Source: a virus
Reading direction: 5' to 3' (one strand)
IMG/VR virus record: IMGVR_UViG_3300044691_000347
Location: 1 to 64,000 of that record
DNA: 64,000 bases
A program made the position numbers and the translations under genes. Below the pieces are notes generated by a model that saw only the letters and a program-made list of their open reading frames with translations, made no database searches and was not told the origin of the DNA. Positions 3,123-56,616 of this stretch are shown here, one piece after another; the first letter of the stretch is position 1; each line of letters starts with the position of its first letter.

Positions 3123-4774
3123 GCAGCCATCGGTGTTTCGGCAGCGACTCCCCCATTGGTGTTGTCGCTGTCGGTGCCGTCGTCTTGGAGATCACTATGC
3201 GCCTGCATCGTTGGGTCTTCCGGTGGCTGTCCCGCGAAATCACCGGGCGCCGGCACCGATACCTGCATTTCTTCCTTGATGCGATCCACTTCCGCATCAA
3301 CGTCGTCGCTGGACATGTTCGGGTTGAACATGCGGACGCTAGCCTCAATCGAGATCGCGTCAGCGGTACGAAGGTTCATGATGGTTTGCGACAGCTGAAT
3401 CGGGCTCTGATCGGCGCGTACCGGAAACTTCATTTCCGGGTTAGCTTTGATGCCGTAGCTGCCGCCGTACACGATCTGGTCTACTTCGAGCATCGTGCGC
3501 GCCAGTGGAGCCATCGCCGACTGCCAGTACAAAACCTTCTTGGACCGGGTGCGGTTCGAAAGATCCTGCCGTGCAGACACTTCCGTCGCCGTGATGCTGG
3601 ACGCCATCTGGTCGTCACCGAAATCGCCGATACTGTAGCCAGCAGCAACGAGGATACGGTTCATCAGAGCATCGCAAGTCGCCTTGTGCTCTGCATGCCG
3701 GATCTCGAATTGCTGCGCCTGCACAAGACTGCTCTTATCTTCCGGCAGCCCCATCGCAGTTCCCGGGACAGGACTATAGATTGCCTGCTCAGGATCCCAA
3801 TACGAGCCGTTGCCGGGACCAGCATCCGTCAGCGCGTCCTCCGCGACAAATAGACGTGCCTTGGCTAGGTCGAGGTCCCGCATCCATGAGCTATAGGCTT
3901 CATCGAGCGAATCGAACAGCGACTCAAGCCCCTCAAAGTCGCTGCGTCCCAACGGACTCAGCATGGGGACGTTGCGCCACTTGCGAGAGGGGCGGACATT
4001 CGGGACGTATGCGGCAGTCAAGCCGCTAACACGCGTCGCGATTGACCCGTTCGTGTCGACGAGATCCGCGGCCCACGCTGTAGCCGGCTGCTCGCTCAGG
4101 TCTGCCAGACGCCCAATGTCGCCGTCGTCGCCCTTATAGAGGGCATGGAAGATAGCGCCCGGCTCGTGCCGTTCCAGATGACGCCACACACCAGTCTTGT
4201 CATCGCACACGGTCGTCCAAAACGTGACCGCGGACAGCATGCCGTAACGCCACTCGGGGATAGCGCAATCGGGTGCGACGGTACCAACCATGACTTTGTC
4301 GACAGCGTCTTTATCCCACCACAAGCGCAGGTACGCGCCGCCTAGGGCCGCTTGAATTTCGGCGGCCTCCAGTAGCGTCGCGACCGTATCCGCGCCCTCC
4401 AAGAGAATGTTCAGGCGATCCTGCGCGGCCCCCAAATCGGATGCTTCGCCATCAGTCAGCACCCACTGCGGCGGCTGCCCGAACAGAAGATCAGCGGACG
4501 TGCGCGCCACATCCGCAGGCGCCGGAACATGCAGACGTTTCGTGCTGGACTGCATGGGAGGACGCCCCCACCAGAAGCGGGCAAGTCGGCCCAGGAAGCC
4601 GCTGTAATACTGAGAGCGGTGCGCAACAGCAGGTGTGCCATCGGGGAACAATTGGTACAAGCGCTGAAGGGTGAAGGTGTCGCCTTCGAGCCAGGCGCTC
4701 CACAGGTTGTAGGCATCTTGAGCTTGATCCCACGGTTCGGGCGGCCACACACCACTGTAATCGGGCATCGGCAT
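3119..4774 (-). CDS. Portal protein (SPP1/A118-like)
   Basis: 551 aa, GRSDF...LDEAYSSWMRDL, ITATEV, acidic tail; lies between terminase and minor capsid. Confidence 0.9.
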   Translation of the reverse strand: MPMPDYSGVWPPEPWDQAQDAYNLWSAWLEGDTFTLQRLYQLFPDGTPAVAHRSQYYSGFLGRLARFWWGRPPMQSSTKRLHVPAPADVARTSADLLFGQPPQWVLTDGEASDLGAAQDRLNILLEGADTVATLLEAAEIQAALGGAYLRLWWDKDAVDKVMVGTVAPDCAIPEWRYGMLSAVTFWTTVCDDKTGVWRHLERHEPGAIFHALYKGDDGDIGRLADLSEQPATAWAADLVDTNGSIATRVSGLTAAYVPNVRPSRKWRNVPMLSPLGRSDFEGLESLFDSLDEAYSSWMRDLDLAKARLFVAEDALTDAGPGNGSYWDPEQAIYSPVPGTAMGLPEDKSSLVQAQQFEIRHAEHKATCDALMNRILVAAGYSIGDFGDDQMASSITATEVSARQDLSNRTRSKKVLYWQSAMAPLARTMLEVDQIVYGGSYGIKANPEMKFPVRADQSPIQLSQTIMNLRTADAISIEASVRMFNPNMSSDDVDAEVDRIKEEMQVSVPAPGDFAGQPPEDPTMQAHSDLQDDGTDSDNTNGGVAAETPMAA

Positions 4775-4843
4775 GCGGGCGGCCTCCCAGAGGATGTGTT
4801 CGCGCCCAAATCCGGTGCAGCGCTGTGAAGTTGGTTGAGTTCC

Positions 4844-6067
4844 TTACAGGAACGCGAGGTCAGACCAGCCGAGCGGGGAATGCTCACCCACGAGGTAGGT
4901 CAAGATGCCGGAGCGGGAGTAGCGACCGGAGATATCGCGCAGCCATTTCGAGCCGCCGTCCAGACTTGGGGCTTGGAACACCGAGCAACTGCCCATATCC
5001 CATGCCGCGAAGTGGTGCCGATGAGCTGTTTGCCAGATCCTGGCGCGATGCGCCTTCTCGTCTCCGCGCGCCTGACCGTTTAGCCACTTCTCAAACGACG
5101 AGGCATCGCCGTTCCCGGGCACCTTATGCCCATGATTGAAAGCGAGCGGGATACCTGCGGCAGCGGTGTACACGTTCATTTCGTCGTGCGGGATCGTCCA
5201 CTTTACGTGGTCGAAGGCGGCGTGACCGGTGAGAGTACGCCGTAGTGTTTCAGCCAAGAAGCCGCCGACATTGTCAGAATCGGAGGTCTTGTTGTCCCGA
5301 CCAGACTGTCTAGATAACTGTCCATGATTACATAGCACTGAGACAAACTGAGCCTTGGAGAACTGGGGAAAGAGTTGCTTGGCATACAGCTGCCACATGT
5401 CGAGGGCGAAGTTCATCTGACCGCGCAAGTTGAGTTCAACCGTAAAAAGCTGGCTCTGGTAGCTTCCATCGCAACCCTCGATCGGATCACCGTTGTTGAC
5501 AAGCACAAGTTCCGCTACGTCGTACGTAGACGACATCCGGTTCAGCCAATGCTGAACGTTCTCTAAACCGTCCGTAAGGCGCTTCTGGGTGGCAGCAACG
5601 CCGCCGCCCTCACTCTTGCCGCCCTGGATGTCCGCCAGGTTGACTACAGCGGCTACGGGTGGTCGGTTTGGCCGTACGGGCCGATCCTGTCCAGCGGTGA
5701 GATTGAAGTGCTTCGGCATCTTCCACGCCCGAAGTTCGGCGCGGCGCTGCTCTACTTCGTCATCCGGGATGCGCTGTTTCGGTTTGCGCTTGAATCGGGC
5801 CGAATATGAGTATAGTTGCACCGTGTCGCGGTCGCCGCTATTGGTACGTTTAGACTGCTGCCACGTGGAGCAACGGACGGTGTCGTCCACAACCTCGAAC
5901 TCGTCAGCGTTCAGTTTGAACAGCTCGAAGACATGCGCCCAATCATCGTTAATGGGCGCATCGACGACTACATTGTTGACGGTGGCGCCATCGCTGGTTA
6001 CGTCGATGGATCCCCTGTTTTGCGGGTCGCGCGGTTCGACGTCGGCGATTGCGTCTGCGAGGCTCAC
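4844..6067 (-). CDS. Calcineurin-like metallophosphoesterase / exonuclease
   Basis: Motifs DIQ, GDPIEG, NHG, HGH, HRHH; GTG start at 6067 overlaps the upstream stop (GTGA). Confidence 0.75.
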   Translation of the reverse strand: MSLADAIADVEPRDPQNRGSIDVTSDGATVNNVVVDAPINDDWAHVFELFKLNADEFEVVDDTVRCSTWQQSKRTNSGDRDTVQLYSYSARFKRKPKQRIPDDEVEQRRAELRAWKMPKHFNLTAGQDRPVRPNRPPVAAVVNLADIQGGKSEGGGVAATQKRLTDGLENVQHWLNRMSSTYDVAELVLVNNGDPIEGCDGSYQSQLFTVELNLRGQMNFALDMWQLYAKQLFPQFSKAQFVSVLCNHGQLSRQSGRDNKTSDSDNVGGFLAETLRRTLTGHAAFDHVKWTIPHDEMNVYTAAAGIPLAFNHGHKVPGNGDASSFEKWLNGQARGDEKAHRARIWQTAHRHHFAAWDMGSCSVFQAPSLDGGSKWLRDISGRYSRSGILTYLVGEHSPLGWSDLAFL

Positions 6068-11353: not shown

Positions 11354-11536
11354 TCACCAAGTGAGCCAACCCTGAGTCGGTTTCGTCTGCCTCGTATCAG
11401 CGAGGTCGAAGCGGTCGTTGCGCATCAACTGGCGGGCTCTGTTACGTTCCGTACGGCGAGTCAGCTGGCGAGCCCACGAGTTCTCATGCCGATACCAAAA
11501 CCGGTCAGGGAAATCGGAACGTCGAGTACGGCTCAT
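11354..11536 (-). CDS. Small basic hypothetical protein
   Basis: MSRTRR...Arg-rich...GWLTW; ATGA overlap. Confidence 0.6.
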   Translation of the reverse strand: MSRTRRSDFPDRFWYRHENSWARQLTRRTERNRARQLMRNDRFDLADTRQTKPTQGWLTW

Positions 11537-11766
11537 GACTTTCCGTGCAGGCTTCGAGCCTCTTTCGAGTTGGGCCCGAAACCGAAATGAGCCATATAGT
11601 ACTCGCTTGCCAGCCCGTTAGCCTTTTCAATCGACATGTGCGCCAGCAGAAGACCCCGCAACGTGCGCCACGGCGTCGGGCTTTCAGCCCACCTGGACAA
11701 GCCTTCACCCAGCCAAAACTCATTGAACTGTCTAACGCCAATGCCAGGACTCGGATCGACAGCCAT
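11533..11766 (-). CDS. Hypothetical phage protein
   Basis: MAVDPSPG...FWLGEGLSRW...; GGTGG RBS. Confidence 0.55.
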   Translation of the reverse strand: MAVDPSPGIGVRQFNEFWLGEGLSRWAESPTPWRTLRGLLLAHMSIEKANGLASEYYMAHFGFGPNSKEARSLHGKS

Positions 11767-11794
11767 GACCACCACCATTTACGTCTAAAAGAAA

Positions 11795-11881
11795 TCGGTA
11801 GTAGCGCCGGGGGTCTTCTCACCCTGTTGTCTTGGCCCTAGTTTTGGTCTCCGATCTTACCTCGGAATCGACTACTACCGA
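11795..11881 (-). ncRNA. Structured RNA element with a 10-bp closing stem followed by a U-tract
   Basis: TCGGTAGTAG/CTACTACCGA encloses TCCGA-GGTAAGA-TCGGA and GGGT-GAGAAG-ACCC hairpins; then TTTCTTTT. Confidence 0.55.
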
Positions 11882-11885
11882 AAGT

Positions 11886-12022
11886 GCGGTGACGAGTGGC
11901 TGCCGTAGCTACACCACACGCCGTGAAGGCTGTCGCGCCGAAGCGGGAGAACCTTCTACGGTTACCGCAAGCAAAGCCCCAATGTTGATATCAGAGTTGG
12001 GGTTACTCTGGGCCGTCACCGC
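11886..12022 (-). ncRNA. Structured RNA element with a possible pseudoknot
   Basis: GCGGTGACG/CGTCACCGC closing stem; CAGAGT/ACTCTG hairpin whose CCCCA loop complements TGGGG; CGC-TTCG-GCG tetraloop. Confidence 0.55.
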
Positions 12023-12085
12023 CAGGTGATTCCGTGAAATACGGAAGGACAGTCAAACCCGCTGCCAGAGGCGACGGACCATATG

Positions 12086-12157
12086 AGCTTCCACCAGGAC
12101 TCGGACCCGGCACTCTTGTTTACTAGACAAGTGCTTTACCAGATAAGCTATGGAAGC
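12086..12157 (-). tRNA. tRNA-Thr(AGT)
   Basis: Full cloverleaf: acceptor GCTTCCA/TGGAAGC, D arm GCTT/AAGC, anticodon arm CTTGT-CTAGTAA-ACAAG, T arm CCGGG-TCCGAGT-CCTGG; CCA not encoded. Confidence 0.85.
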
Positions 12158-12190
12158 GACTACCCATCGATCCCGGAGGATGACGAGCCG

Positions 12191-12439
12191 TTAAACGCGC
12201 GGCGGCCAGTTCCAGCAACCGGGGGTCGGCACTTCAGCGAACGGAACGAGCTGGTTGAAGAACATGCCAGTCGGGTTGAGCACGCACAAACCGACATGCA
12301 CTTTAGAGGGGTTGGCGAGGTCCGGCGAGTCATCAGGGTACGTGCAAGTAATGATGGCAGCTCGTGGCTCGGGCAGATATTCGCCGCCCGGAGTACCGTA
12401 CGACTGGTAATGGACGATGCGACCAACTGTAGGATTCAC
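12191..12439 (-). CDS. Conserved small phage protein (PTVGRIVHY...WPPRV type)
   Basis: GTG start 2 nt after the tRNA-Ser discriminator; recognisable family motif at both ends. Confidence 0.7.
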   Translation of the reverse strand: MNPTVGRIVHYQSYGTPGGEYLPEPRAAIITCTYPDDSPDLANPSKVHVGLCVLNPTGMFFNQLVPFAEVPTPGCWNWPPRV

Positions 12440-12440
12440 G

Positions 12441-12524
12441 CGGAAGTTTGATGAGTCGAACACCCGGGTTTTACCCCGCCTCTGGCTTTCAAGGCCAGCT
12501 GCCGACCACTCGGCGGAAACTTCC
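12441..12524 (-). tRNA. tRNA-Ser(TGA) with an 8/4 acceptor/T-stem fold
   Basis: Acceptor GGAAGTTT/AAACTTCC, G73, anticodon arm CTGGC-CTTGAAA-GCCAG, long variable arm, T arm GGTG-TTCGACT-CATC. Confidence 0.8.
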
Positions 12525-12528
12525 AGAC

Positions 12529-12583
12529 GCACCTAGCGGCCGGGACTGGAACCCGGGAAACCATTGCCACACTCGCTAGATGC
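12529..12583 (-). ncRNA. Mini tRNA-like element with no anticodon arm
   Basis: GCATCTAGCG/CGCTAGGTGC stem, D-loop-like AATGGT, T arm CCGGG-TTCCAGT-CCCGG. Confidence 0.6.
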
Positions 12584-12601
12584 TGGTGCACCGTGGCTAC
12601 G

Positions 12602-12675
12602 TTGCGATGGCAGGATTTGAACCTGCGACCTAGAGCTTATGAGGCTCCCGAGCTACCGAACTGCTCCACATCGCA
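12602..12675 (-). tRNA. tRNA-Met(CAT) with an initiator-derived body
   Basis: TGCGATG/CATCGCA, GAGC-AGTTCGGTA-GCTC, GGAGC-CTCATAA-GCTCT, GCAGG-TTCAAAT-CCTGC. Confidence 0.9.
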
Positions 12676-13130
12676 CTGAGGCCCTTGATAACGGAGGTCT
12701 GCAACTCCGGTCCACCGTCTTTCGGTCCCAGCGCATAGCGTGGACTGTAGGGCACGGCAGTCATGCGTTTTAACACCTGAGCCTTGCGGCTACCGCCTTA
12801 CCGTGTATTTCGGCCCCACATGCGCGGCAGGGAATGTTAGCCCCTGCTGCCCCGACGACTCTCCGTCGCCGGGCCGCGCAAGTTTAAAAGGTGGGCGGCT
12901 TACTAGGCCAATCGACCGGAGGACGAACACTTAGTCATGTAAGTTGATCCGGTGCCACAACACTTTGTCCGCTAAGACTGGAAAGCCTCGGGCCGCTAAG
13001 CCTTCGGTGGATAGTGGTTCCTCAGCACTCGCCGTTGGTTCCACTTCATTCCCGTTGTGCACATTTCAGCCCGCGTTCCCGGTAGGCTGAACACTCTGTC
13101 ACCACCAGCGCGAGCCGCTAAACCCGCGCT
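12676..13130 (-). ncRNA. Large ornate non-coding RNA candidate (ROOL/GOLLD-like context) containing a hatchet-like domain
   Basis: No credible ORF; more than 10 helices, GCAA and GAAA loops, several long-range pairings; flanked by tRNAs. Confidence 0.65.
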
Positions 13131-13133
13131 TTG

Positions 13134-13204
13134 CTCCCCATCCGCGAGTCGAACGCGGACGTAGCCTTTTATATCGGGCAGCTCTACCGTTGAGCTAATG
13201 AGGA
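13134..13204 (-). tRNA. Pseudo-tRNA with a degenerate anticodon arm
   Basis: Acceptor TCCTCAT/ATGGGGA, D arm GCTC/GAGC, T arm CCGCG-TTCGACT-CGCGG; anticodon arm reduced to GCC/GGC around CGATATAAAA. Confidence 0.7.
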
Positions 13205-13292
13205 AACCGTGAGAGTCAATACCCCCAACCCCCACAATGCTAGGGCATGTTTCCCCTAAATCCGGCTTTGTCGATAACGATTACATAACGTC

Positions 13293-13931
13293 CTATGCTA
13301 CTTCAGCCGCAATCGCCGCATAGCCCGCGATATCTACGCACGAATCCCGTTTGTGTCCGGCCGCTTCCCGCGCGATCTTCGCGAGAATCATCATCAACGC
13401 CACATCCCGCGGTTGCAGCAAATCACCAGACTGCATGATCGGATACAGGTAGTCGTTCCAATACTCCGCGATCCTCTTCAGGTTGTCCCGCGGATTCCCG
13501 TACTGGTCCTCTCGATCCCCGCACACAAGGCTTTCAGCTTCACGCAGGACTTGCGCGCGGACGGGAATGTCTTCTTCTATATCCGGTTCTTCGTCGTCGC
13601 ACCGCGACCAGACACCGCCGTTCGGGTCCGGCAGCTGTCTATACGGTTCACGAAGGGCGAGCGTGAACCCGGTTGCTTGACAGAACTCTTCGAGGGTGGT
13701 GATGCCGTTGAGCTGGTCGCCGTACGTGACGGCACTTTCCAACTCGAATGGGCCATCCTCTGGTCCGATGAACACCTTCGCCTGACCGTGCCGATACTTG
13801 AAGTGCCGGTATTGCCCGGTCGCTGTCCACGCATCCCACGTCGACGGGATCCCGTAACAGGTGTGGATGGCCTTCACGATCACCGTGTCACTCGGCACCG
13901 CCCGAAACTCCTCTTCTGTCAACGCACTCAC
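13293..13931 (-). CDS. Two-domain protein with a C-terminal DUF6378-like (all-alpha NTP-pyrophosphatase-related) domain
   Basis: LREAESLVCGDREDQYG...RIAEYW...KIAR...DSCVDIAGYA; GTGA overlap. Confidence 0.7.
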   Translation of the reverse strand: MSALTEEEFRAVPSDTVIVKAIHTCYGIPSTWDAWTATGQYRHFKYRHGQAKVFIGPEDGPFELESAVTYGDQLNGITTLEEFCQATGFTLALREPYRQLPDPNGGVWSRCDDEEPDIEEDIPVRAQVLREAESLVCGDREDQYGNPRDNLKRIAEYWNDYLYPIMQSGDLLQPRDVALMMILAKIAREAAGHKRDSCVDIAGYAAIAAEVA

Positions 13932-14224
13932 GCTGCCACCTCTTTCTTTGTCGGTCGTCTCGTCCCCTGCATCTCCCGGACACGCCCTACACCGGTCGGC
14001 CCATACCAGAGGGCTTTCGAAACCTCGCCGGCGATCACCTCGGGTGCGGGATGCCCCCAATGCCATAGGCCGTCGATGTGCGGGCATGGATAGGCTTGCA
14101 GCCGTTCACCCGGAAACCGGCGTCGCGCTGCGGTGCGTGCGTGTTTGCGGCTCGGGTAGGCGTGCTTCCGGCACTGCTCACACCTGCCGACCGCGCGACC
14201 ATCAACCGGTCTGTTCCTGTTCAC
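13928..14224 (-). CDS. Small zinc-binding protein
   Basis: CEQCRKHAY...AYPCP...WHWGH; coupled overlaps at both ends. Confidence 0.6.
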   Translation of the reverse strand: MNRNRPVDGRAVGRCEQCRKHAYPSRKHARTAARRRFPGERLQAYPCPHIDGLWHWGHPAPEVIAGEVSKALWYGPTGVGRVREMQGTRRPTKKEVAA

Positions 14225-14868
14225 GCCGCCTCCCCGAAGTCGAGCGGGAAACCTGGATGGTTGTCAGCCGTGTCGATCCAACTCATCAGCTTCGGCAAAT
14301 TCTGATCCGGCCCAAATGTCAGGTAAGTCCCGTCGACCGAGTTGCAGCCAATGGCCTCCGCGTACCGAAAGCGGCGCAACGAGTTCACTCTTCCCATGTG
14401 TACCCACTTCCCGCGGCGCTTCGCCTCACCCACGAGTGCGCGCGCACTCGAACTCAGTTTCCATTCCGTCGATCCGCCAATGAACAAGACGTCGAACTCG
14501 CTCCACGGGATCGCCCATGGCGCAGGCAGCGCTTCCAAGCCGTCCTGGGCGACAAACGCAGCCGGGTAGCCCAACTCTCGGACTTTCGGCAGCCAAGGGA
14601 GCGAGCGCCGTAGAGTCGCGACGGCGTCACCGACAACATCGGGCGCGGTAGCGAATAGGCATGTTCCCGCATCAGTTGCGTTGGCTGTCAACCATGTCAG
14701 CCATGCCGCGTCTCCTGGATACCCCTTGCCGAAGCAGCCGTTGTCAGCACACCAACTGACACCAGAGGGCCGCTTGTTGCCTTGCGCTGGGGTATCGATG
14801 AATCCGAGCATGCCGCTCACCATGGCTGCCACGGTCGCCGCACCGCACGGGTTGGCCATGTATTGCAT
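14221..14868 (-). CDS. TGT/DpdA-like (7-deazaguanine transglycosylase-fold) protein
   Basis: ADNGCF, APDVVGD, VAQDG, LFIGG, VHMG and SVDG motifs in TGT barrel order; next to the QueF-like and VUT genes. Confidence 0.65.
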   Translation of the reverse strand: MQYMANPCGAATVAAMVSGMLGFIDTPAQGNKRPSGVSWCADNGCFGKGYPGDAAWLTWLTANATDAGTCLFATAPDVVGDAVATLRRSLPWLPKVRELGYPAAFVAQDGLEALPAPWAIPWSEFDVLFIGGSTEWKLSSSARALVGEAKRRGKWVHMGRVNSLRRFRYAEAIGCNSVDGTYLTFGPDQNLPKLMSWIDTADNHPGFPLDFGEAA

Positions 14869-14872
14869 CGCG

Positions 14873-15196
14873 TCACGCTCGGCCTCGCTTGACCCGTACA
14901 CTCATGCTGGCGGTCGTCCATGTGCTCGACACGCCAACGACTTCGGGGCCGTCAAGCGAGGCCAGTTCGTCGAACACGCGGCTTGTCAGAGCTTCGTGCG
15001 ATATCGGCGTTTCAGCGAAGCCATTGAAATATTCTGCCAGTGCATGCAATTCGAATGTACAATCCGAGACCAAGAACACGACCGTGACCTCACCCTCGTC
15101 CACTTCGTCCGCAAATGGGCACAAGTGTTGGATGGGTGCGGTGATGGTGACAGTCTCCGGCCCGACTTCAGGCGAAAGATTTCTGACGATCGACAT
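14873..15196 (-). CDS. QueF-like T-fold protein
   Basis: LCPxxxxxD catalytic Cys/Asp spacing, ELHALAEY at the QueF-motif position, ISHE. Confidence 0.7.
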   Translation of the reverse strand: MSIVRNLSPEVGPETVTITAPIQHLCPFADEVDEGEVTVVFLVSDCTFELHALAEYFNGFAETPISHEALTSRVFDELASLDGPEVVGVSSTWTTASMSVRVKRGRA

Positions 15197-15722
15197 ACGA
15201 GGCCCCCTTCCCGATGATCAGGTAGGCGAGTCCCGCCCATATTTTTCCAACGAGTTGGCCGAGCAGAACACCGCAGATTGCCGCGGCCCCGAACGCGAGT
15301 CCAATGAATACGACGGTGTCGATGACGGCACCCGCGATGGCAGATGCCATGACGGCTGCGCCCCAACGCATGTCGCCGAGACGGGACCGATTCCGTAGCG
15401 GCGTGTAGACAGCAAAGTCCAGCAGTTCGGCGAGCACGAATGCGGCTGTCGAGGCAATCGCGATAGCCGGGCTCGACACCGCATAGGAGACGACGGCAGC
15501 AACTGCAATCACCAGCACGACTGAGAGTTTCCCGATGAGATCTTGGATCGCGTCGCGCAGAACGAGCCCAAGCCCAGCGAAGATAGTCCCTGCGGTCGCT
15601 TGAAGTCCGAACCCGACATCGATGAATCCGTATCGCGATGTGACATAGTTCGCGGCCACAACAGAGGCGACAAGCGCCGTCGCGAAGGCGAGACCGGACA
15701 GTGTCTTTGCGTTCATCTTCAC
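15168..15722 (-). CDS. VUT family (YhhQ-like) queuosine-precursor transporter
   Basis: Multi-TM; VAAN, AGT..AG..LVLRD..Q, IAIAS..AF..AELLDFAVY, IDTVVFI.LAF, GQLVGK. Confidence 0.85.
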   Translation of the reverse strand: MKMNAKTLSGLAFATALVASVVAANYVTSRYGFIDVGFGLQATAGTIFAGLGLVLRDAIQDLIGKLSVVLVIAVAAVVSYAVSSPAIAIASTAAFVLAELLDFAVYTPLRNRSRLGDMRWGAAVMASAIAGAVIDTVVFIGLAFGAAAICGVLLGQLVGKIWAGLAYLIIGKGASYVDRQKSFA

Positions 15723-16342
15723 GCAGCCTCACTCCAGCTGTGCACGCCGAGAACGCCAGCGATATCCGGGGGCGTCCAACCGTTCGGCTTCATCACCTTG
15801 CCGTCAGGGCGTCGAATAGCGATGCCGCCCACCAACTTCGCAAGGTTCGAGCGTTGCACCTCATCCCACACTGCCTGCAAAGGAAGCCCGAGCATGTAGC
15901 CGACGCCAGCGACGCCGTACATTGCGTCATGGATGGCGTTGTCGATGCGGATGAGGTTCCGGTCGTGTGCAGCGTCGAGGATGCAAGCGTGTGCGGACTC
16001 CAAATCCTCACGCACCGACCGGATGTCCTCGCCGGTGAGCGCGGTGAAACCGATCGTGATCCCGTGGATCGGCGCCTTCAGGAAGTCGGTAACGAATCGG
16101 CGCGCGACACCCAGACGGAGAGCGAGACCAGCGAGAACGTAGAGACTGTCGGCCACAGCGTCGGCAGTCTCTACGATGTCCCGGACCTCCAGCGCGGAGT
16201 CCAACTCGCTCAACTCTTCCGCAACCAGGCTCAATGCAAGCTGAAGTTCATCATCGGGCACCCAACCGGGCACAAGCCGCATGCGCACATCGCAGGCGCG
16301 GCTGAAGGTCTCAACGTCCAGCCACAGATTAGAAGTCATCAT
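15719..16342 (-). CDS. MazG-like nucleoside triphosphate pyrophosphohydrolase (duplicated helical module)
   Basis: EELSEL...DAVADSLYV; WDEVQRSNLAK...RPDGKVMKP.GW.PPDI. Confidence 0.8.
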   Translation of the reverse strand: MMTSNLWLDVETFSRACDVRMRLVPGWVPDDELQLALSLVAEELSELDSALEVRDIVETADAVADSLYVLAGLALRLGVARRFVTDFLKAPIHGITIGFTALTGEDIRSVREDLESAHACILDAAHDRNLIRIDNAIHDAMYGVAGVGYMLGLPLQAVWDEVQRSNLAKLVGGIAIRRPDGKVMKPNGWTPPDIAGVLGVHSWSEAA

Positions 16343-17282
16343 GGTCGGGAATCCCCAATCTCATCAGCGGCACGCCAAGACGAGCCCACATTCTTGCCAC
16401 ACTCAGTCGATCATCGAAAACCCCGAGAATCCGGTAGCGGCACCGGATCTGCTGGTCAAAGATGCCGTACTTGACCGTGTAATCCGGTCGCTTATCCCCC
16501 GTGACCCGCATGTGGATCTCATCGAACGGGATGCCGTTGGCACGCAACCATGCCGCGGTCACGTCCTTGCAGGCGTCATCCCTGCCGCTCAAAATTACGA
16601 TCGCCGAATCGGCGGCCAACTTTCGCACCACTTCCACCGTGTGAGCGATCGGGATATCCTCATGCACGCGCGTGTAGTCGTAGATACCGCGAGTCGGGGA
16701 CTTCGTTGCGAGCGTCCCATCAACGTCGACCAGCCATGCCGGCGGAAGGGCTTCATCGGGCACATACGGATCTGGGTAGAAAAACAGATCTGGTGACGGT
16801 TCGACCTTCGGCCAGTTCTTGCGCGGGAACCGTCTGGCGAGCGCCCGAATCGCGTCCTCTCCGACCGTCCTGCCACCAGCTTCACCGCGGGCTTTGTCGC
16901 GGGCTACGCAAACGTCTACGGGAGTGTCGAGGTAGATCGATTCTACGTCGGCGCCGTTCAAGGCCGCTATGTTTGCCCAGCCGCGTGTCCACTGTGCGCG
17001 CAGGTTCATTGCGTCGACGAAGACGTCGAATCCGGCGTCGATGAGCGTTTTCGCCTGTGCCCGTTCGGCTTTAGTGATCACTTGCTCTTGATCGTTCGGG
17101 AGCCGTCCGTGTGCACCGAACAGGGTTACCCGTAAATCGTCACGGGACACGCGAGCAAGCAACGGGTTGGTGGCACGCATCTGCTCGAATAGGCTGGTTT
17201 TTCCTGCTCCAGGCCAACCGATCGGCACATACACTTTCGGGCGACGTGGCGCGTCCACGACTGCCAGTTTCTCGATGCTCAT
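16329..17282 (-). CDS. pnk: Polynucleotide 5'-kinase/3'-phosphatase (T4 PseT-like)
   Basis: P-loop GWPGAGKT, SRDDLR; HAD motifs DVDGT, SGR, FDDR. Confidence 0.9.
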   Translation of the reverse strand: MSIEKLAVVDAPRRPKVYVPIGWPGAGKTSLFEQMRATNPLLARVSRDDLRVTLFGAHGRLPNDQEQVITKAERAQAKTLIDAGFDVFVDAMNLRAQWTRGWANIAALNGADVESIYLDTPVDVCVARDKARGEAGGRTVGEDAIRALARRFPRKNWPKVEPSPDLFFYPDPYVPDEALPPAWLVDVDGTLATKSPTRGIYDYTRVHEDIPIAHTVEVVRKLAADSAIVILSGRDDACKDVTAAWLRANGIPFDEIHMRVTGDKRPDYTVKYGIFDQQIRCRYRILGVFDDRLSVARMWARLGVPLMRLGIPDHDDF

Positions 17283-17896
17283 GCCGATACCACCTCATCG
17301 CGGTTGAAAACGAACTTCTGATAGACGCTCCGGTTGGTGGCACGCATCCGAACGGAGATCCTGTCTCCATGGCGCATTAGGTCCCCGCGGAACGCCCCGT
17401 AGAGCGGCAACGCTGCCGCCACACGGGCCGCTACAGCCACGGCGAACGCTTCGTCGACCTCTCCCCCCAGTTTCATTTCCAAACGTTCTGGGGTGGCTGT
17501 GAGGCGCGCATACTTGTTGCTGCCCCCATAGATGAGCTGCACTTCGGCTGGTGCGCCACTTCGGTCCGGCATCCCATCCGGTTCACGTTCATACAGTTCG
17601 GCTCGGTTGCCTGGATAGGCCGCCCAGCTCAGGTTTTCGCGGCGATCGTTCGACAAGTCTCCATCGGCGTGGATTACATCGACATCACTCGGCATCCAGC
17701 CCAGGAACGCCACCGCTACAAGCCGATCAACGCGAACAACTGAGCGGACACCGTTCTTCACCAAGACGACGTAATTTCGCCCTGCTGCGTGCCCTGGACG
17801 TTGAGGTACCGGCAAACCAGCGCTGCGCACGCTGCCGTGGTCGGATACCTCGCATCCGGGCTCACAACCGGAGATTCGACGCCACTCTTCGGTCAC
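17279..17896 (-). CDS. NUMOD4/HNH-type endonuclease-like protein, possibly degenerate, with an extra C-terminal domain
   Basis: EEWRRI...EVSDHGSVRS; VDRLVAVAF...HADGD..N...NLSW. Confidence 0.65.
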   Translation of the reverse strand: MTEEWRRISGCEPGCEVSDHGSVRSAGLPVPQRPGHAAGRNYVVLVKNGVRSVVRVDRLVAVAFLGWMPSDVDVIHADGDLSNDRRENLSWAAYPGNRAELYEREPDGMPDRSGAPAEVQLIYGGSNKYARLTATPERLEMKLGGEVDEAFAVAVAARVAAALPLYGAFRGDLMRHGDRISVRMRATNRSVYQKFVFNRDEVVSA

Positions 17897-19158
17897 GCAG
17901 CCTCCCCCAGCGATTCGAGGTCGACTTTACCCTTGTCCAACTGTTTGGTCTCGAAAGCGAAGAACGCTGGAGCCTTCGCCTTCGAGAAGTGCGGGGCGAT
18001 GCCCTCCACGCGTACAACAACGCCTTCGTCCACGGTCTTTCCAGGTTCGAGCGGGATGGCGTGCAGATAGCCTTCGTCGCGGTAGCGTTTGTCGAGCCAG
18101 TCTGCGACGGCGAAGTCGGAATGCAGCCCAGTCCACAGTTCCGGGACGTGCTTCAGTCCGCGGTCGCGGCAGAACTCTTTGACGGCTTCCCAAGACAGGT
18201 CGACCGCTATTCCTTGACCGTTCACGACAGCAACGCGGTAGATGTACAGTTCGGCGTCGCCCCTGGGGATGCAATACGTGTAACCGGTCTGTAATGCTGC
18301 ACCGTCCTGCGACCAGCCGACGAGTTCACCGTACACGATGTAGTTTTCGGGAAGCATGCCGTCGAGCCGTTTGCCGTAGTGGGTCCACACGTCGGATTCG
18401 TAGTGATGCTGTTGGCCCTTGTTGTTGGCGTCCTTCACTACTCGACGACTCGCATACACGTAGTCGTGTTCGGTGGTTGCCACCTTGACACCGAACTTGC
18501 GTGCGATTCGGTCGCGGATCGGCAGTGCTCGCGCAACGGTGGTGTGCCCCACGCGGATTGAGGTTCCGTGCAACTTCTGGGTGCAGAGGATGCGAGCATC
18601 CGCGGGGATCTGCGCGGAGACCCGGAAATAGTTGTCGGTCGAAAAATGTTCCGGCATGAACTTTTTGTCGACGCGCGTGAACTTGGCCTTGTTCTTCTCT
18701 GTCAGCGAAGCGCCGTTGCCCTTGACCATGACCTCATATTTGGAGCAAATCGGGTGCCCGTTCAATGTGTCGAATGTGTCGCCGACCTTCAAGTCGTCAA
18801 CGTCGACGCCCGTGAAGGCAAGCGATGCCAACGGCATGAACAGGGCATCTGACCGGTGTCCACGCAGCTTTATGGCACGCACACGTCGGTTGTCACCCAA
18901 GTAGCCCTTGGCGTCGGGTGTGGCATTCAGGTGGGCATGCGCGTGGAGGTCGTTGACCCGCGCGTACTCGTCGCTGAGCTGTGTCTCCGCAGTGAAAACC
19001 ACGCCGACGGTTCCTTGTGCCGTGTCTTTGCCCACGATCGCCTGAAAACCAAGCGCCTGTACACCAACGATGTTGTCGCAGCCATGTAGCTCGTTCGGCG
19101 CGGGGAGCGCTACGACGACGGCGCTGTAATTCGGGTTTGCTGGAGTAGTCAACTTCAT
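17893..19158 (-). CDS. ATP-dependent RNA ligase with an N-terminal OB/tRNA-binding-like domain (DRB0094-like)
   Basis: KLHGT adenylation motif, YGELVG, VPEL, EGVVVR, KAK; N-terminal VRAIKLRG..S. Confidence 0.85.
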   Translation of the reverse strand: MKLTTPANPNYSAVVVALPAPNELHGCDNIVGVQALGFQAIVGKDTAQGTVGVVFTAETQLSDEYARVNDLHAHAHLNATPDAKGYLGDNRRVRAIKLRGHRSDALFMPLASLAFTGVDVDDLKVGDTFDTLNGHPICSKYEVMVKGNGASLTEKNKAKFTRVDKKFMPEHFSTDNYFRVSAQIPADARILCTQKLHGTSIRVGHTTVARALPIRDRIARKFGVKVATTEHDYVYASRRVVKDANNKGQQHHYESDVWTHYGKRLDGMLPENYIVYGELVGWSQDGAALQTGYTYCIPRGDAELYIYRVAVVNGQGIAVDLSWEAVKEFCRDRGLKHVPELWTGLHSDFAVADWLDKRYRDEGYLHAIPLEPGKTVDEGVVVRVEGIAPHFSKAKAPAFFAFETKQLDKGKVDLESLGEAA

Positions 19159-19162
19159 TTAC

Positions 19163-19183
19163 CTACGATAGCGTATATCGCAT
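19163..19183. promoter_or_regulatory. Palindromic operator candidate, copy 1
   Basis: CTACGATA-GCGTA-TATCGCAT, 5 nt upstream of the RNA ligase start. Confidence 0.55.
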
Positions 19184-19191
19184 GCGATCGT

Positions 19192-19956
19192 CTACATCGG
19201 ATTCAGACTGTTCGTCTCGACGATCACCGTGTTCTCTGCGATCGGTGAGGAGTCATCGTTGAGGATGTTGACGGTCGTCGAGTAGTCGGCGCCGTTCAGG
19301 GTGGTAGTGAGCCGCCCGTGGTAGTGGCCGGCGTACAGGTGGCGCGGTTTCACGTCATCGACGACTGACCGCAGGAGTTCCCGATGGCATTGCGCGGCAT
19401 AAATTTCGGCCTCCGGGTAGCCGTGCGGGTTGCCTTCGATCCACGGGATTCGGGCGCCTGCGGGCACATCGTGACAGATCATGACGTCGGCGGGTCCGTC
19501 GTCACAGGCCTGTTGTGCTTGCTGCCAGCTGATCGTCTCGTCAGGCCACCACTCGACGCCAGGTGTCCGCCAGGGCCGGTCAACGCTATGCGCGCCACCC
19601 AGCGCGAGGAATCGGATGTCGTTCCATGTCCATCGGTAGGTGCGCGGCAAGTAGAAGATGTTCGGCCGCATCGCGATCGGGGTGATGCCGTGTTCGTCGA
19701 CGAGGGCGTTCAGCCGGGGATGATCCTCATGGTTCCCATCAACGAACCCGAGCGTGAGTCCTGCGTCCTCTAGGGCGTATTGCACGTGCCGCATGAACCG
19801 GTCTGCGAACGTGTAGCCGAAGTCGCCGACATGCAGGATAACTTGGGCACCATTGGCTTTCGCGTATTCGATGGCCCGCTTGGCGAAATGTTGATTTCCA
19901 TGCCAATCACCAGACAACGTGATCGGTGTTGGCGCGAGATCTTCCCAGGTGCTCAT
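19192..19956 (-). CDS. Metallophosphoesterase
   Basis: GDWHG, GDFG, GNHE, CHD, GHYH. Confidence 0.9.
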   Translation of the reverse strand: MSTWEDLAPTPITLSGDWHGNQHFAKRAIEYAKANGAQVILHVGDFGYTFADRFMRHVQYALEDAGLTLGFVDGNHEDHPRLNALVDEHGITPIAMRPNIFYLPRTYRWTWNDIRFLALGGAHSVDRPWRTPGVEWWPDETISWQQAQQACDDGPADVMICHDVPAGARIPWIEGNPHGYPEAEIYAAQCHRELLRSVVDDVKPRHLYAGHYHGRLTTTLNGADYSTTVNILNDDSSPIAENTVIVETNSLNPM

Positions 19957-20310
19957 CGTTCGATCCGTCCGTGTTTGCGCACTTGTTTCCAACGCCGCCA
20001 CACTCGGTCTTGATGGCAGGTGCTTTGATACGGGTTGCAGTCGTCGCATTCGCGTAGGTCGCGGAACTCCCATAGTGCGATGACGAGGACATGGAAACCT
20101 ACCGGAATAGCGAGCGTCTTGCGGTAGTACTCGTCGCCACCGAACCAAGGCCACACGTACGGGCGCAGATGCCCTCGTTTCGGAATCCCCATGTTCGTCA
20201 GCCACATTCGGCCACGGATGGATCGGCGAAGGCCCCGAAGTTCGGCAACTTCTCGTATCAACATGCTGCCCACGTCCTGATCATGTCGTCGGTTGCGTAG
20301 CGATGGTGCT

Positions 20311-20625
20311 TCACGGTTCCCGCTGCGCCCAGGTCTTCATCATGAACGAGGGTGCGTAGCGTTCGGCGGTGCGTTGAATCCATTCACGGCCAACGCGTTC
20401 TGCTGAGTGCACATACAAGAGTCCGGGCCACCATTCGTGTTGTGCCATCCACATGACGAGGGGCCGTGCGGTGTCGCTGCCACCCAAGTCATGGTCGAGA
20501 GACAGTGCCTCCAGTTGCTGTCCGCAGTCTCGGAGCATGGTGAACCAGCAAAGCGCTTCAAGGCTCGACTTCGCCAGCTCCCAACCGTCCGGTGCGGGCC
20601 GGAGGTCATCGACGTACAGTTTCAC
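20311..20625 (-). CDS. Cyclic-phosphate-processing receiver (cREC) domain protein
   Basis: KLYVDDLRPAP.GW...LSLDHDLG...VHS; lies in an RNA-repair neighbourhood. Confidence 0.8.
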   Translation of the reverse strand: MKLYVDDLRPAPDGWELAKSSLEALCWFTMLRDCGQQLEALSLDHDLGGSDTARPLVMWMAQHEWWPGLLYVHSAERVGREWIQRTAERYAPSFMMKTWAQREP

Positions 20626-54169: not shown

Positions 54170-54789
54170 ATCACCGTCCCGCCGTACCATGCCCGGATCG
54201 ATTCGATGTCGCCCGCGGACACGTCCATGCCGGCGAGTTCCAGGATTCTGCGATCCATCTCGATAGACGGCCCCGGCATCGGATTCGCGTGGATCACAAC
54301 TTGGGCGGCTGTCGCAGTCTCCTCGTCGTCCGACGTCACCAGCGCCAGCAGATCCCCGGACATCAGGATCGCTGAACGGATCATCGCCTCCACGGTCGGC
54401 GGCCCGAACATGGCACGCAGCAACGCATCCCCGACGCACCCGTCAATCAGGTCGTCATGGCTCGGGCGCCCACACCAGCAGCGCTCACTCATGCCAGCCC
54501 TGTCTCCTCGTTGATTGGTGCGCCGCCACACGGTCGTGGTACCGCCGTGCGAGCGTGCCGTGGTAGCCCGCACTTCAACCTTCTCGACACACCCTTTCCG
54601 CTTCAGGCCGAGGATCATCGGACCGAGTCGGCGAGACTCCGACAAGTCCGCCCAGCCTTTCACCCGCATCGCCGTAAGAATGTTCGCGTTGATGAACTCT
54701 TCACCAGGCGGCAGGCTGAGGATGAGCCGTTGCGCCACAGCCAGATACACGGTCGGATCAGGGCCGTCGACAACATCAGTCGTCGTCAT
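54166..54789 (-). CDS. Hypothetical protein, probably two fused ORFs
   Basis: Internal AGGAGA RBS with an in-frame ATG at 54492. Confidence 0.5.
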   Translation of the reverse strand: MTTTDVVDGPDPTVYLAVAQRLILSLPPGEEFINANILTAMRVKGWADLSESRRLGPMILGLKRKGCVEKVEVRATTARSHGGTTTVWRRTNQRGDRAGMSERCWCGRPSHDDLIDGCVGDALLRAMFGPPTVEAMIRSAILMSGDLLALVTSDDEETATAAQVVIHANPMPGPSIEMDRRILELAGMDVSAGDIESIRAWYGGTVI

Positions 54790-56348
54790 GCCGCCACCGC
54801 CCCGGCGCCGTGGAGTACGGCACGCAACCGGGCACCGATCCACGCGCCAACCGCGGGGCTGACAGCGTTACCGTAACCGTCACATTGATTCCGGGCGCTC
54901 CCCCACACCTTGAATGTGCCTTCACGGCCGGGCCGGGTGGTGTCGAAGCCGCACCCTGCACCAACCTCGGGGGCCGTCAGCATCTTGAGGTGGCATGCCT
55001 CCAACGGCAGATCAGCAAGAACCACAGCCATTTCCGCGCTCAACATCCCTGGAATTTGCAGGGACGTCACCGTCGGCATCGGCTCCGAAGCGAGCACCGG
55101 GACTGTGTTCTTCCTGAACGGGATCACACCCGCCACCAGGGCGAGAGTTTCGGATCCGACGACAGTCGGCAGCGGGGTGCCGAGGCTGCGCGGTGCACCC
55201 TGAAAGTTGTTGATCGCCGCGAACATTGCATCCGTCGACAGCAAGGCCGTCTCCTGCTGCGAAGTCTGCGTAGACATCGGCTGCCACGGATGCCGTTCAA
55301 CACCATGCGCACTCTTAATAGGCATCAGAATGCCCGGGAACTCAGCGAATCTGCGGCGGCAACGCTCCGCGCGCGCCATCGTCGCCGGCGCCAACGGAAG
55401 CCGAACCTCCCGGTCACCCACCTTGAACGTCTTCAACGGCCGCTCACCAATCCGGGCACCCAAATCAGTGAGATCCAAGGCATGTAGCGACGGAGTCATC
55501 GGCGGAACAACCTCGCGACGGCACCGCGGGCATGTGTAATTGTATTGTTTGCCGTACCGCACCGAACCGCTCGGTGGAATACCGGTCTTCCACGACCACA
55601 CTGCAGGAACCGTGTCATCGCACGCAGCGCACCACGAGAGCGGCCGATGCTCCAAATCTGGGGCAGGCAAAGTCAGCAGCGAAAACACTATATAAATCCG
55701 GTCACGCGACTGCGGTGTATCGAAGAACTGCGAATTCAAATACAAAACCTGATGCCGGTACCCCTCGTTTCCGAGCTGCTTCAACCAATACCTGTACGTC
55801 GAACCATCCCCAACATTCGGTTTGCCGGGAATCGCAGGCCCCCACGACGTCAATTCCGTGGTGCATTCGATCAGAATCAGCCGCGGATGATGACGTTGAG
55901 CATAATGCAGGACACAATTCGCTGTGGCCCTGTCCTTCTCCGAACGGGTGACCCGATCATCGAAATCCGGATCATCCAAATCAAAAAGCGATAACCCCTG
56001 CTCGTAAGCCTTCTTCGTGTTCGCCTGCGTATGATTCGTGCAAGTCACGCCCGCACACAAAATATCTGCGGCAGGCAAATCACGGGCACTATGATAGTCG
56101 GAAGAGTCCGGGTTGATCAGATCCGCGATCCAATGCTCCGTTTCCGGATGGTTCGCTTCATGCACTGAAGTTTTGTAGGCATTGTGATTCGCGGCCATAA
56201 TCGTCGAAAATCCGGCACGCTTGATGCCTTCAGTCAAACCGCCGAAACCGGAGAACAAGTCAACGGCAACGAGATCATCATGACGCCAACGACGCCGTCG
56301 CGTCGCCGGCCGATGCTCCGCAGTGCGACTGATCGTTGTGGGCTTCAT
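54786..56348 (-). CDS. C5-cytosine DNA methyltransferase with a zinc-ribbon insertion
   Basis: DLFSGFGG, VTCTNH, IECT, PQSRDRIY, CAAC...CPRC, GNAV. Confidence 0.85.
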   Translation of the reverse strand: MKPTTISRTAEHRPATRRRRWRHDDLVAVDLFSGFGGLTEGIKRAGFSTIMAANHNAYKTSVHEANHPETEHWIADLINPDSSDYHSARDLPAADILCAGVTCTNHTQANTKKAYEQGLSLFDLDDPDFDDRVTRSEKDRATANCVLHYAQRHHPRLILIECTTELTSWGPAIPGKPNVGDGSTYRYWLKQLGNEGYRHQVLYLNSQFFDTPQSRDRIYIVFSLLTLPAPDLEHRPLSWCAACDDTVPAVWSWKTGIPPSGSVRYGKQYNYTCPRCRREVVPPMTPSLHALDLTDLGARIGERPLKTFKVGDREVRLPLAPATMARAERCRRRFAEFPGILMPIKSAHGVERHPWQPMSTQTSQQETALLSTDAMFAAINNFQGAPRSLGTPLPTVVGSETLALVAGVIPFRKNTVPVLASEPMPTVTSLQIPGMLSAEMAVVLADLPLEACHLKMLTAPEVGAGCGFDTTRPGREGTFKVWGSARNQCDGYGNAVSPAVGAWIGARLRAVLHGAGAVAA

Positions 56349-56616
56349 CGAACACCTCCGAAACCAGTCTCTCCACCGACGCAAACCCGCCGAAACCGAG
56401 CGAGCCCCGTAGAGCGATTCAGAAGCCGATCCGATACCGGTGTCGCAGAGACGGCATTACGTCCGGCAGCATGACGTACAGCGGGCACTACGGGCATCCT
56501 GAAACCAAGCACGCCCAGCAGGGAAACAAGGGGCGTTGGACGAAACTGCGTCGATCCATAAACGGAACGGTAACCCCGTTTATGGTTCATATCTGAATCA
56601 TTGTTGAGGTTTCTGT

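Follow-up and report, generated by a model that had tools for sequence, protein, structure and literature searches.

The DNA analyzed here (the window) comprises the first 64 kb of the virus record IMGVR_UViG_3300044691_000347, and encodes a cassette of three tightly packed minus-strand genes: a membrane transporter of the VUT / YhhQ (QPTR) family, a small QueF-like protein of the T-fold type, and a minimal (beta/alpha)8 barrel protein that is remotely homologous to the phage transglycosylase DpdA. The explanation that we favor, by a modest degree of confidence, is salvage-type 7-deazaguanine modification, in which a base is imported, converted and inserted, most likely into phage DNA. In the proposed mechanism, the VUT/QPTR transporter would import free preQ0 and/or preQ1, made neither by the phage nor, probably, by its actinobacterial host. 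The QueF-like enzyme would bind preQ0 via a conserved Cys and convert it, most likely to preQ1, in an optional step. The barrel enzyme would then exchange guanine for the imported base, most likely in double-stranded phage DNA after replication, in the manner of phage DpdA. DNA modification by 7-deazaguanines is an established phage counter to restriction, and phage DNA modified in this way would blunt restriction. The virus record is of soil-metagenome origin, the sequencing runs listed for it being of soil-metagenome DNA and none of RNA, and is complete (91,377 bp, with direct terminal repeats). The G+C content of the window is ~60%, and the portal protein is ~52% identical to the portals of 84-87-kb Gordonia phages.

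Cassette organization and precursor supply

The transporter gene (15722-15168, minus strand; 184 aa, isoelectric point (pI) 9.6) overlaps the QueF-like gene (15196-14873, minus strand; 107 aa, pI 4.4) by 29 nt, and 4 bases separate the stop codon of the latter from the ATG of the barrel gene (14868-14221, minus strand; 215 aa; phrog_15826, E 1.8e-88). An alternative GTG start at 14901 would lengthen the barrel protein to 226 aa, but the 215-aa form is preferred because the homologs begin at ATG 14868. An earlier note on this DNA, made without database searches, had described the same close-packed trio, and its placement of the three genes is borne out.

The transporter is hydrophobic throughout (segments 7-28, 57-106 and 120-170), with a polytopic membrane topology. 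It matches Pfam Vut_1 (E 5.5e-11, 43.5 bits, cut-off 27.2) and phrog_4899 (E 1e-37), as well as the ‘queuosine precursor transporter’ model TIGR00697 (E 2.8e-11, 43.6 bits), there under the cut-off of 50.95. Against NF008406 it scores 33.4 bits for a cut-off of 252, and does not reach an equivalog-level match to the characterized preQ0/preQ1 transporters. Substrate specificity in the VUT family is not readable from sequence (PMC11130926), and the cargo is presumed to be a 7-deazaguanine base (preQ0, preQ1 or queuine).

Searches of the complete 91,377-bp genome detected no FolE, QueD/PTPS, radical-SAM/QueE, QueC or Pfam tRNA-guanine transglycosylase (TGT), the sole FolE-like match being the QueF-like T-fold itself. 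The lack of the genes folE, queD, queE and queC, reported in the earlier note for the window, thus extends to the whole phage. The hosts, where the note had suggested that such genes might also be sought, were sampled through 40 bacterial genomes carrying the barrel gene. Full-length QueC is lacking in 32 of these and present in only 8, while bacterial TGT is absent from 30 of the 40 and present in every Nocardia genome. In most hosts, therefore, preQ0 is not made and queuosine is not used, consistent with the base having to be imported, and salvage of the base rather than its synthesis is well supported.

The Nocardia hosts, in which bacterial TGT is present and QueC mostly lacking, also bring up lysogenic conversion, in which the transporter would mainly supply the host TGT with queuosine precursors, to the gain of the lysogen, with a barrel protein that would serve as an accessory or have no activity. 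A Nocardia farcinica contig does carry the copy of the trio closest to the one described here (VUT 69% identical). Against this, the transporter-barrel pair is frequent among Streptomyces and further hosts that lack TGT altogether, the barrel protein is strongly conserved (57 diverse members share seven invariant polar residues), and where the transporter and barrel genes co-occur they are almost always coupled directly, making lysogenic conversion highly improbable by comparison with salvage of a base for insertion by the barrel enzyme.

The barrel protein as a minimal DpdA homolog

The family of the barrel protein is large, with 6,154 and 2,835 clusters at 90% and 50% identity, and is spread over actinophages and the prophages of Streptomyces, Nocardia and their relatives. 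Its relationship to DpdA emerges from an hhalign comparison with a DpdA1-type alignment of 44 sequences (the Sonali gp87 family, to which DpdAs from 9g, CAjan and Iggy are related), which gives a probability of 97.2% and E 3.5e-11 over 130 columns. Four motif pairs are aligned in order (DNGCF/DSGAF, PDVVGD/LDVIGD, GG/GG and HMG/HGLG), with D42, D77, GG and H157 set on the invariant D37, D73, GG and H155 of phage DpdA1. We regard this profile-profile match as the decisive test of the predicted homology. Across 57 family members, D77, Q108, K137, H157, R160, D179 and G180 are invariant, while D42 (at least 90%) and G131-G132 are nearly so. The conserved catalytic and base-binding motifs of the TGT type (DSGGFQ, D, Q, GG, HMLG-like, D-x-x-D) are present in order in the family, and D179 is probably equivalent to the TGT nucleophile. 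An hhalign comparison with a shallow alignment of six bacterial TGTs matches Q108, GG, HMG and D179 to their counterparts among the TGT motifs, and is not significant (E 0.44); because the genuine DpdA1 family also fails this comparison, it is insensitive.

Simpler sequence searches do not see this relationship. BLAST with a DpdA1 query against the barrel family, and in the reverse direction, does not retrieve one family from the other. Pfam had nothing relevant for any of the 57 sequences even with E allowed up to 10, including no TGT (PF01702) and no DUF6610, and precomputed Pfam hits are likewise lacking for the bona fide phage DpdA1 family. No TGT was found among PDB sequences with the barrel protein, by single-sequence phmmer or by profile hmmsearch. 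The assignment of the 215-aa product to the TGT fold in the earlier note therefore holds at the level of profiles and structure, and is invisible to Pfam and PDB sequence searches. In GenBank, the label ‘DpdA-like tRNA-guanine transglycosylase’ is carried by actinophage proteins 55-69% identical to the barrel protein, in Arthrobacter phages Aoka and Sonali and in Fishburnevirus mycobacteriophages (GreaseLightnin and relatives), and the homologs in ReqiPine5 and Weirdo19 are left unnamed.

An AlphaFold2 (AF2) model built from the 57-sequence alignment (pLDDT 94.3) is a (beta/alpha)8 TIM barrel. When compared by VIA-align with 48,161 PDB representative chains, its first three matches were Cap10 (Z 14.7, a chain of the Cap10-CdnD complex), bacterial TGT (Z 14.2, with 197 residues superposed at 2.9 Å) and archaeal TGT (Z 14.0), followed at lower ranks by QTRT2 (11th) and the bacterial DpdA 7ui4 (13th). 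This ranking of the TGT superfamily, obtained with a predicted model, is suggestive only. In the viral structure library BFVD, the best matches are enriched in phage ‘queuine tRNA-ribosyltransferases’. The barrel protein is presumed to be a guanine/7-deazaguanine transglycosylase.

The first place of Cap10 in the structural ranking points to a further possibility, in which the acceptor would be a protein, as for Cap10 in the type IV cyclic oligonucleotide-based antiphage signaling system (CBASS), or the enzyme would be a glycosidase or a phosphoribosyl-type salvage enzyme acting on free nucleotides, with a 7-deazaguanine or another imported purine-like base. The small size and slight acidity of the barrel protein would suit such roles, as would the latitude left by the VUT family, whose substrates sequence does not disclose. 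However, Cap10 is ahead of the bacterial and archaeal TGTs by only 0.5-0.7 Z, and neither a CD-NTase nor a Cap9-like partner occurs among the recurrent neighbors of the barrel gene. Linkage and fusions to QueC, QueD and QueF indicate bases of the preQ0 family, and the conserved motifs agree with DpdA. We consider an acceptor of this kind improbable, and prefer the transfer of a 7-deazaguanine base to a polynucleotide, most likely DNA.

Coupling of the barrel gene to predicted import or synthesis of the base

Across the family, the barrel gene is coupled either to a transporter or to QueC. Its neighborhood was compared in 160 loci encoding the barrel protein (80 viral and 80 from bacterial genomes, the latter mostly of Actinomycetota including Streptomyces, Nocardia, Kribbella and Micromonospora), taken with 4-6 kb flanks. 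A VUT gene is a neighbor in 85 of the 160 loci (56 viral, 29 genomic), being directly upstream on the same strand in 76 and upstream with a gap in 6. QueC is a neighbor in 9 loci, with QueC, QueD and a radical-SAM gene then within ~1 kb of the barrel gene, and VUT and QueC occur together in none of the 160. Whole-record searches of 50 viral contigs gave the same exclusive pattern (VUT in 26, QueC in 9, overlap 0; Fisher p 5e-4). The idea in the earlier note, that the precursor is imported instead of made, accords with this distribution, the barrel gene lying directly behind VUT in about half of the loci, with QueC/QueD/QueE elsewhere, and never with both. On a tree of 161 proteins, linkage must have changed 4-7 times for QueC and at least 10 times for VUT, indicating that the ‘make’ and ‘import’ contexts have been swapped repeatedly.

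The QueF-like gene is present in 10 of the 160 loci, between VUT and the barrel gene. Of the three-gene module claimed in the earlier note, the transporter-transglycosylase pair thus stands as the conserved core, while the QueF-like gene is an occasional accessory. Genes for single-stranded DNA-binding protein (SSB) and for C5 and N6/N4 DNA methylases are recurrent neighbors of the VUT-linked pair, and there is no further universal partner, with the most frequent other gene in at most 13 VUT-linked loci. Five QueC-positive records, one of them 97% complete, contain no DpdA1-type gene, Pfam TGT or DUF6610, the barrel gene being the only DpdA-type gene detected. Some genomes encode both the barrel protein and a ~300-aa DpdA1-type enzyme, as in Sonali (genes 81 and 87), L039 and L151, with QueC present in Sonali and L039. 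That some phages keep both suggests that the two enzymes are not equivalent, and they may differ in substrate or target.

Several variations on the locus were also observed. Metagenomic proteins (P0217, P0220, P0128, P0157, P0260) join the barrel domain to an N6/N4 DNA methylase, QueC, QueF (two cases) or DUF6884, and are apparent fusions, with gene-calling artefacts possible. In ReqiPine5, the transporter/barrel pair lies at the left genome end beside TerL, where the surrounding genes are annotated as Rosebush-like, with a gene resembling 3'-phosphoadenosine-5'-phosphosulfate (PAPS) reductase (PP-loop) just downstream of the barrel gene (4239-5156). A PP-loop gene is also found in locus L103 (7203-8237) and in ~15 Streptomyces prophage-like loci without VUT or QueC; in the Streptomyces group, the flanking genes further include one for a DprA-like protein upstream and one of the DUF6248 family downstream. 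In Escherichia phage SHIN8 (Seuratvirus), whose genome also encodes an ordinary DpdA along with que genes, barrel residues 81-192 are matched at ~44% identity by two adjacent open reading frames of 94 and 109 aa (4294-4886), which lie between the genes for the sliding clamp and DNA polymerase. The two frames may be what is left of a barrel gene that was split, or may specify a half-barrel protein.

The QueF-like protein

The QueF-like protein scores just above the Pfam QueF cut-off (28.4 bits, cut-off 27.3). It also matches the preQ1-synthase model TIGR03139 (E 2.6e-7), far under the cut-off, as do 8 of 9 members of its family, all of them far under the cut-off. In a word-based homolog search, a single Nocardioides protein was the only match besides the query. 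In Foldseek searches with its AF2 model (pLDDT 90.9), ranks 1-8 were taken by the archaeosine synthase QueF-Like (5jyx/5k0p; TM-score 0.75-0.83 in both directions, over the whole 103-109-aa chain), and the next match was the unimodular QueF 4f8b (TM-score 0.78). The comparison with QueF-Like by phmmer gave E 0.18.

Residues invariant in the nine members are C26, P27, E31, D33, E49, L50, H51, S66, H67 and E68. By reading of motifs, C26, D33 and H67-E68 would be the thioimide Cys, the Asp and the His-Glu of the QueF preQ0 pocket, and we take C26, D33, H67 and E68 to correspond to C55, D62, H96 and E97 of the Bacillus subtilis enzyme. The net charge of about -10 is weakly suggestive of a free-base substrate rather than a polynucleotide.

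The QueF-like proteins of phages Dp-1 and HVTV-1 showed the same ambiguity between QueF and QueF-L, and the DNA of both contained dPreQ1 (PMC6884629). Because of this precedent from similar proteins, preQ1 is the preferred product, and reduction of preQ0 to preQ1 is our best guess, by analogy, for the reaction of the QueF-like protein. Formation of an amidine (G+) is the alternative.

Probable acceptor of the imported base

We infer that the acceptor is DNA, because the barrel protein is homologous to DpdA rather than to bacterial TGT, because the family occurs in neighborhoods with DNA methylases and SSB and in a methylase fusion, because there are QueC-positive phages with the barrel gene as the only DpdA-type gene detected, and because most of the hosts lack queuosine. 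DpdA has been found in every phage with deazaguanine-containing DNA (PMC10516641). The earlier note had argued for DNA from the phage tRNAs. The tRNAs predicted by ARAGORN across the genome number four (Thr-AGU, Ser-UGA, Met-CAU and, doubtfully, Tyr-AUA), all without a GUN anticodon. The observation is thus upheld, but it is a weak argument for DNA because the GUN tRNAs of the host could also be targets.

A number of findings weigh against modification of phage DNA by this cassette, some of them touching the enzymes and others the context. In the structural comparison, ribulose-phosphate epimerase and PdxJ are within 1 Z of the top VIA-align match, so that the preference for TGT amounts to a tie, and Foldseek searches of the PDB with the barrel model ranked generic TIM barrels first. 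The barrel protein is not basic (pI 5.7), and lacks the C-terminal zinc subdomain (CxCxxC...H), ending ~35 residues past the last barrel motif with no Cys after C175, while the bacterial TGTs compared here bear C325, C327 and C330. The zinc subdomain of TGT contributes to tRNA binding. In QueF, the NADPH-binding motif is E(S/L)K(S/A)hK(L/Y)(Y/F/W); at this site, the QueF-like protein of this phage has E-L-H-A-L-A-E-Y and most of its relatives have E-L-H-S-L-R-x-Y, with the Glu and the aromatic end kept, the first Lys always replaced by His and the second by Arg, Ala or Gly. In this phage, the cassette adjoins RNA-repair and tRNA genes, not DNA methylases. Three QueC-positive phages, including Sonali, keep both the barrel protein and the DpdA1-type enzyme. 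The exclusivity of VUT and QueC, when reduced to phylogenetically independent pairs, is tested by 4 pairs only, with VUT changing in the opposite direction to QueC in about three of them and in the same direction in none, and this comparison is underpowered (p 0.125-0.25). Finally, no modification was found in Mycobacterium phage Orion, which has DpdA only (PMC6884629), so a DpdA-type gene alone is no guarantee of modified DNA.

Several of the same features bear on whether the chemistry might instead have an RNA acceptor, with the base placed at position 34 of the host GUN tRNAs (Tyr, His, Asn, Asp), enabling queuosine-lacking hosts to better decode the many U-ending codons of the phage. TGT enzymes are ancestrally tRNA enzymes, and the cassette of this phage is co-transcribed with RNA ligase, polynucleotide kinase-phosphatase (PNKP) and tRNA genes. 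U-ending codons for Tyr, His, Asn and Asp make up 26-46% in the phage, for a G+C content at third codon positions (GC3) of 0.69, and would be used far more than in a typical high-GC host; the phage also has a tRNA-Thr(AGU), which reads a U-ending codon through A34. Since most hosts of the family are without bacterial TGT, unmodified G34 would be on offer, and a tRNA-directed barrel protein would also accommodate the Sonali-type phages, which retain a DpdA1-type enzyme in addition. Nevertheless, the profile match is to phage DpdA and not to bacterial TGT, the subdomain with which bacterial TGT assists tRNA binding is missing, the family-wide neighbors and fusions involve DNA methylases and SSB, and the barrel is the sole DpdA-type gene detected in the five QueC-positive phages, so that an RNA acceptor appears unlikely. 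A more particular version, in which a minimal transglycosylase with its own importer would equip host tRNAs, in queuosine-less actinobacteria, with a wobble base of the preQ1/queuine type and so retune the decoding of U-ending Tyr, His, Asn and Asp codons, or its variant with a dual DNA/RNA enzyme, seems more doubtful still. Insertion of the salvaged base into phage DNA remains the preferred reading.

Genomic surroundings

The cassette closes a minus-strand run of overlapping genes (19158-14221), which proceeds from RNA ligase (19158-17893; Pfam RNA_ligase) through an HNH endonuclease (17896-17279; Pfam HNH_3), PNKP (17282-16329; Pfam AAA_33 and HAD_PNKP) and a MazG-like nucleotide pyrophosphohydrolase (16342-15719; Pfam PRA-PH, E 1.8e-12; phrog_671) to the transporter, QueF-like and barrel genes. 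RNA ligase, HNH endonuclease and PNKP, among which PHROGs 968 and 505 are matched, are genomic context outside the deazaguanine module. Together with a metallophosphoesterase, they make up an RNA end-healing/sealing set directly upstream of the cassette (16329-20205, minus strand), co-oriented and mostly overlapping. The MazG-like gene overlaps the transporter start by 4 nt, and a DUF6378 gene (14087-13293, minus strand; Pfam DUF6378, E 2.6e-27) follows the barrel gene after 134 nt, with the tRNA genes another 1-2 kb downstream. Both flanking genes had been pointed out in the earlier note, and both are present. As candidate parts of the module they were rejected, since no MazG homolog occurs in the 4-6 kb flanks of any related locus (0 of 160) and a DUF6378 homolog is nearby in only 3.

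Among the phage tRNAs, the tRNA-Thr with the rare A34 anticodon AGU (12085-12157, minus strand) scores 57 bits with Rfam and would decode the U-ending ACU, which has a 34% share of ACU+ACC in the phage genes sampled. The 72-nt tRNA-Tyr(AUA) call (13133-13204, minus strand) has two anticodon-stem mismatches and goes unrecognized as a tRNA by Rfam (E up to 1), and may be a degenerate or atypical tRNA-like element. A 532-aa DNA methyltransferase (phrog_116) is encoded at 54786-56384 on the minus strand, and may be a second, independent DNA-modification function of the phage. A megablast search of the cassette region against 50,697 phage records gave no match, Rfam detected no preQ1 riboswitch (E up to 1, positions 11500-20500), and promoter and terminator scans of the region gave nothing informative.

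Relation to known systems and biological meaning

The DpdA1 systems of Rosebush, CAjan and 9g (PMC6884629) resemble the one described here in that an enzyme of the TGT superfamily, with profile homology of 97%, is linked to 7-deazaguanine supply. These systems make preQ0 de novo, whereas here a transporter stands in for FolE, QueD, QueE and QueC, and their enzymes are ~280-300 aa in length, compared with ~210 aa for the barrel protein. DpdA3 and DpdA4, added later (Cellulophaga phage phiST and Campylobacter phages; Halovirus HVTV-1) (PMC10516641), are, like the barrel family, divergent TGT-like proteins beside deazaguanine genes that are seen only by remote-homology methods. DpdA4 corresponds to Pfam DUF6610, which the barrel family does not match even at E 10, and the phiST protein (DpdA3), compared by structure, is a weak match to the barrel (TM-score 0.49). 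The published DpdA1-4 are defined mainly beside genes of the de novo pathway, whereas the barrel family is beside an importer more often than beside QueC.

The idea of an exogenous precursor is already known. For the DpdA-only phages Orion and Salmonella phage 7-11, which likewise have a DpdA-type gene without a precursor pathway, a host or exogenous precursor was proposed, and YhhQ homologs were noted in some phages (PMC6884629). In that 2019 paper, YhhQ was not correlated with any phage group (PMC6884629). Orion has no transporter, whereas here gene overlap joins the transporter to the module, and such coupling is the norm family-wide. ReqiPine5 and the Fishburnevirus phages Ksquared and Majeke do not appear in those parts of the supplementary files of PMC6884629 that were available to us, and our full-text literature searches turned up neither an account of a minimal DpdA nor one of such an enzyme paired with a VUT transporter.

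The import-reduce-exchange logic of the cassette is the same as that of queuosine salvage by YhhQ/QPTR, QueF and TGT in Escherichia coli (PMC11130926), which uses the same three families. Unlike in E. coli, all three proteins here are miniaturized and divergent, each being under its NCBIfam equivalog cut-off, and are phage-encoded, with DNA as the probable acceptor. Dp-1 and HVTV-1 likewise have small QueF-like proteins, which are close to archaeal QueF-L by structure and profile and to bacterial QueF by sequence clustering, and whose presence went with dPreQ1 in the DNA. Those two viruses make preQ0 themselves. In the protein described here, the lysines of the QueF motif are replaced.

Soil Actinomycetota carry many 7-deazapurine pathways (bioRxiv 10.64898/2026.04.15.718813). 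Cultured carriers of the barrel gene exist, including Aoka (with the same cassette), ReqiPine5 and the Fishburnevirus mycobacteriophages, making the proposed pathway directly testable. If the cassette is active, whether phage DNA becomes modified, and so escapes restriction, would depend on the deazaguanines found in the surroundings, and such a dependence would also account for the unmodified look that DpdA-only phages can have when grown in defined media.

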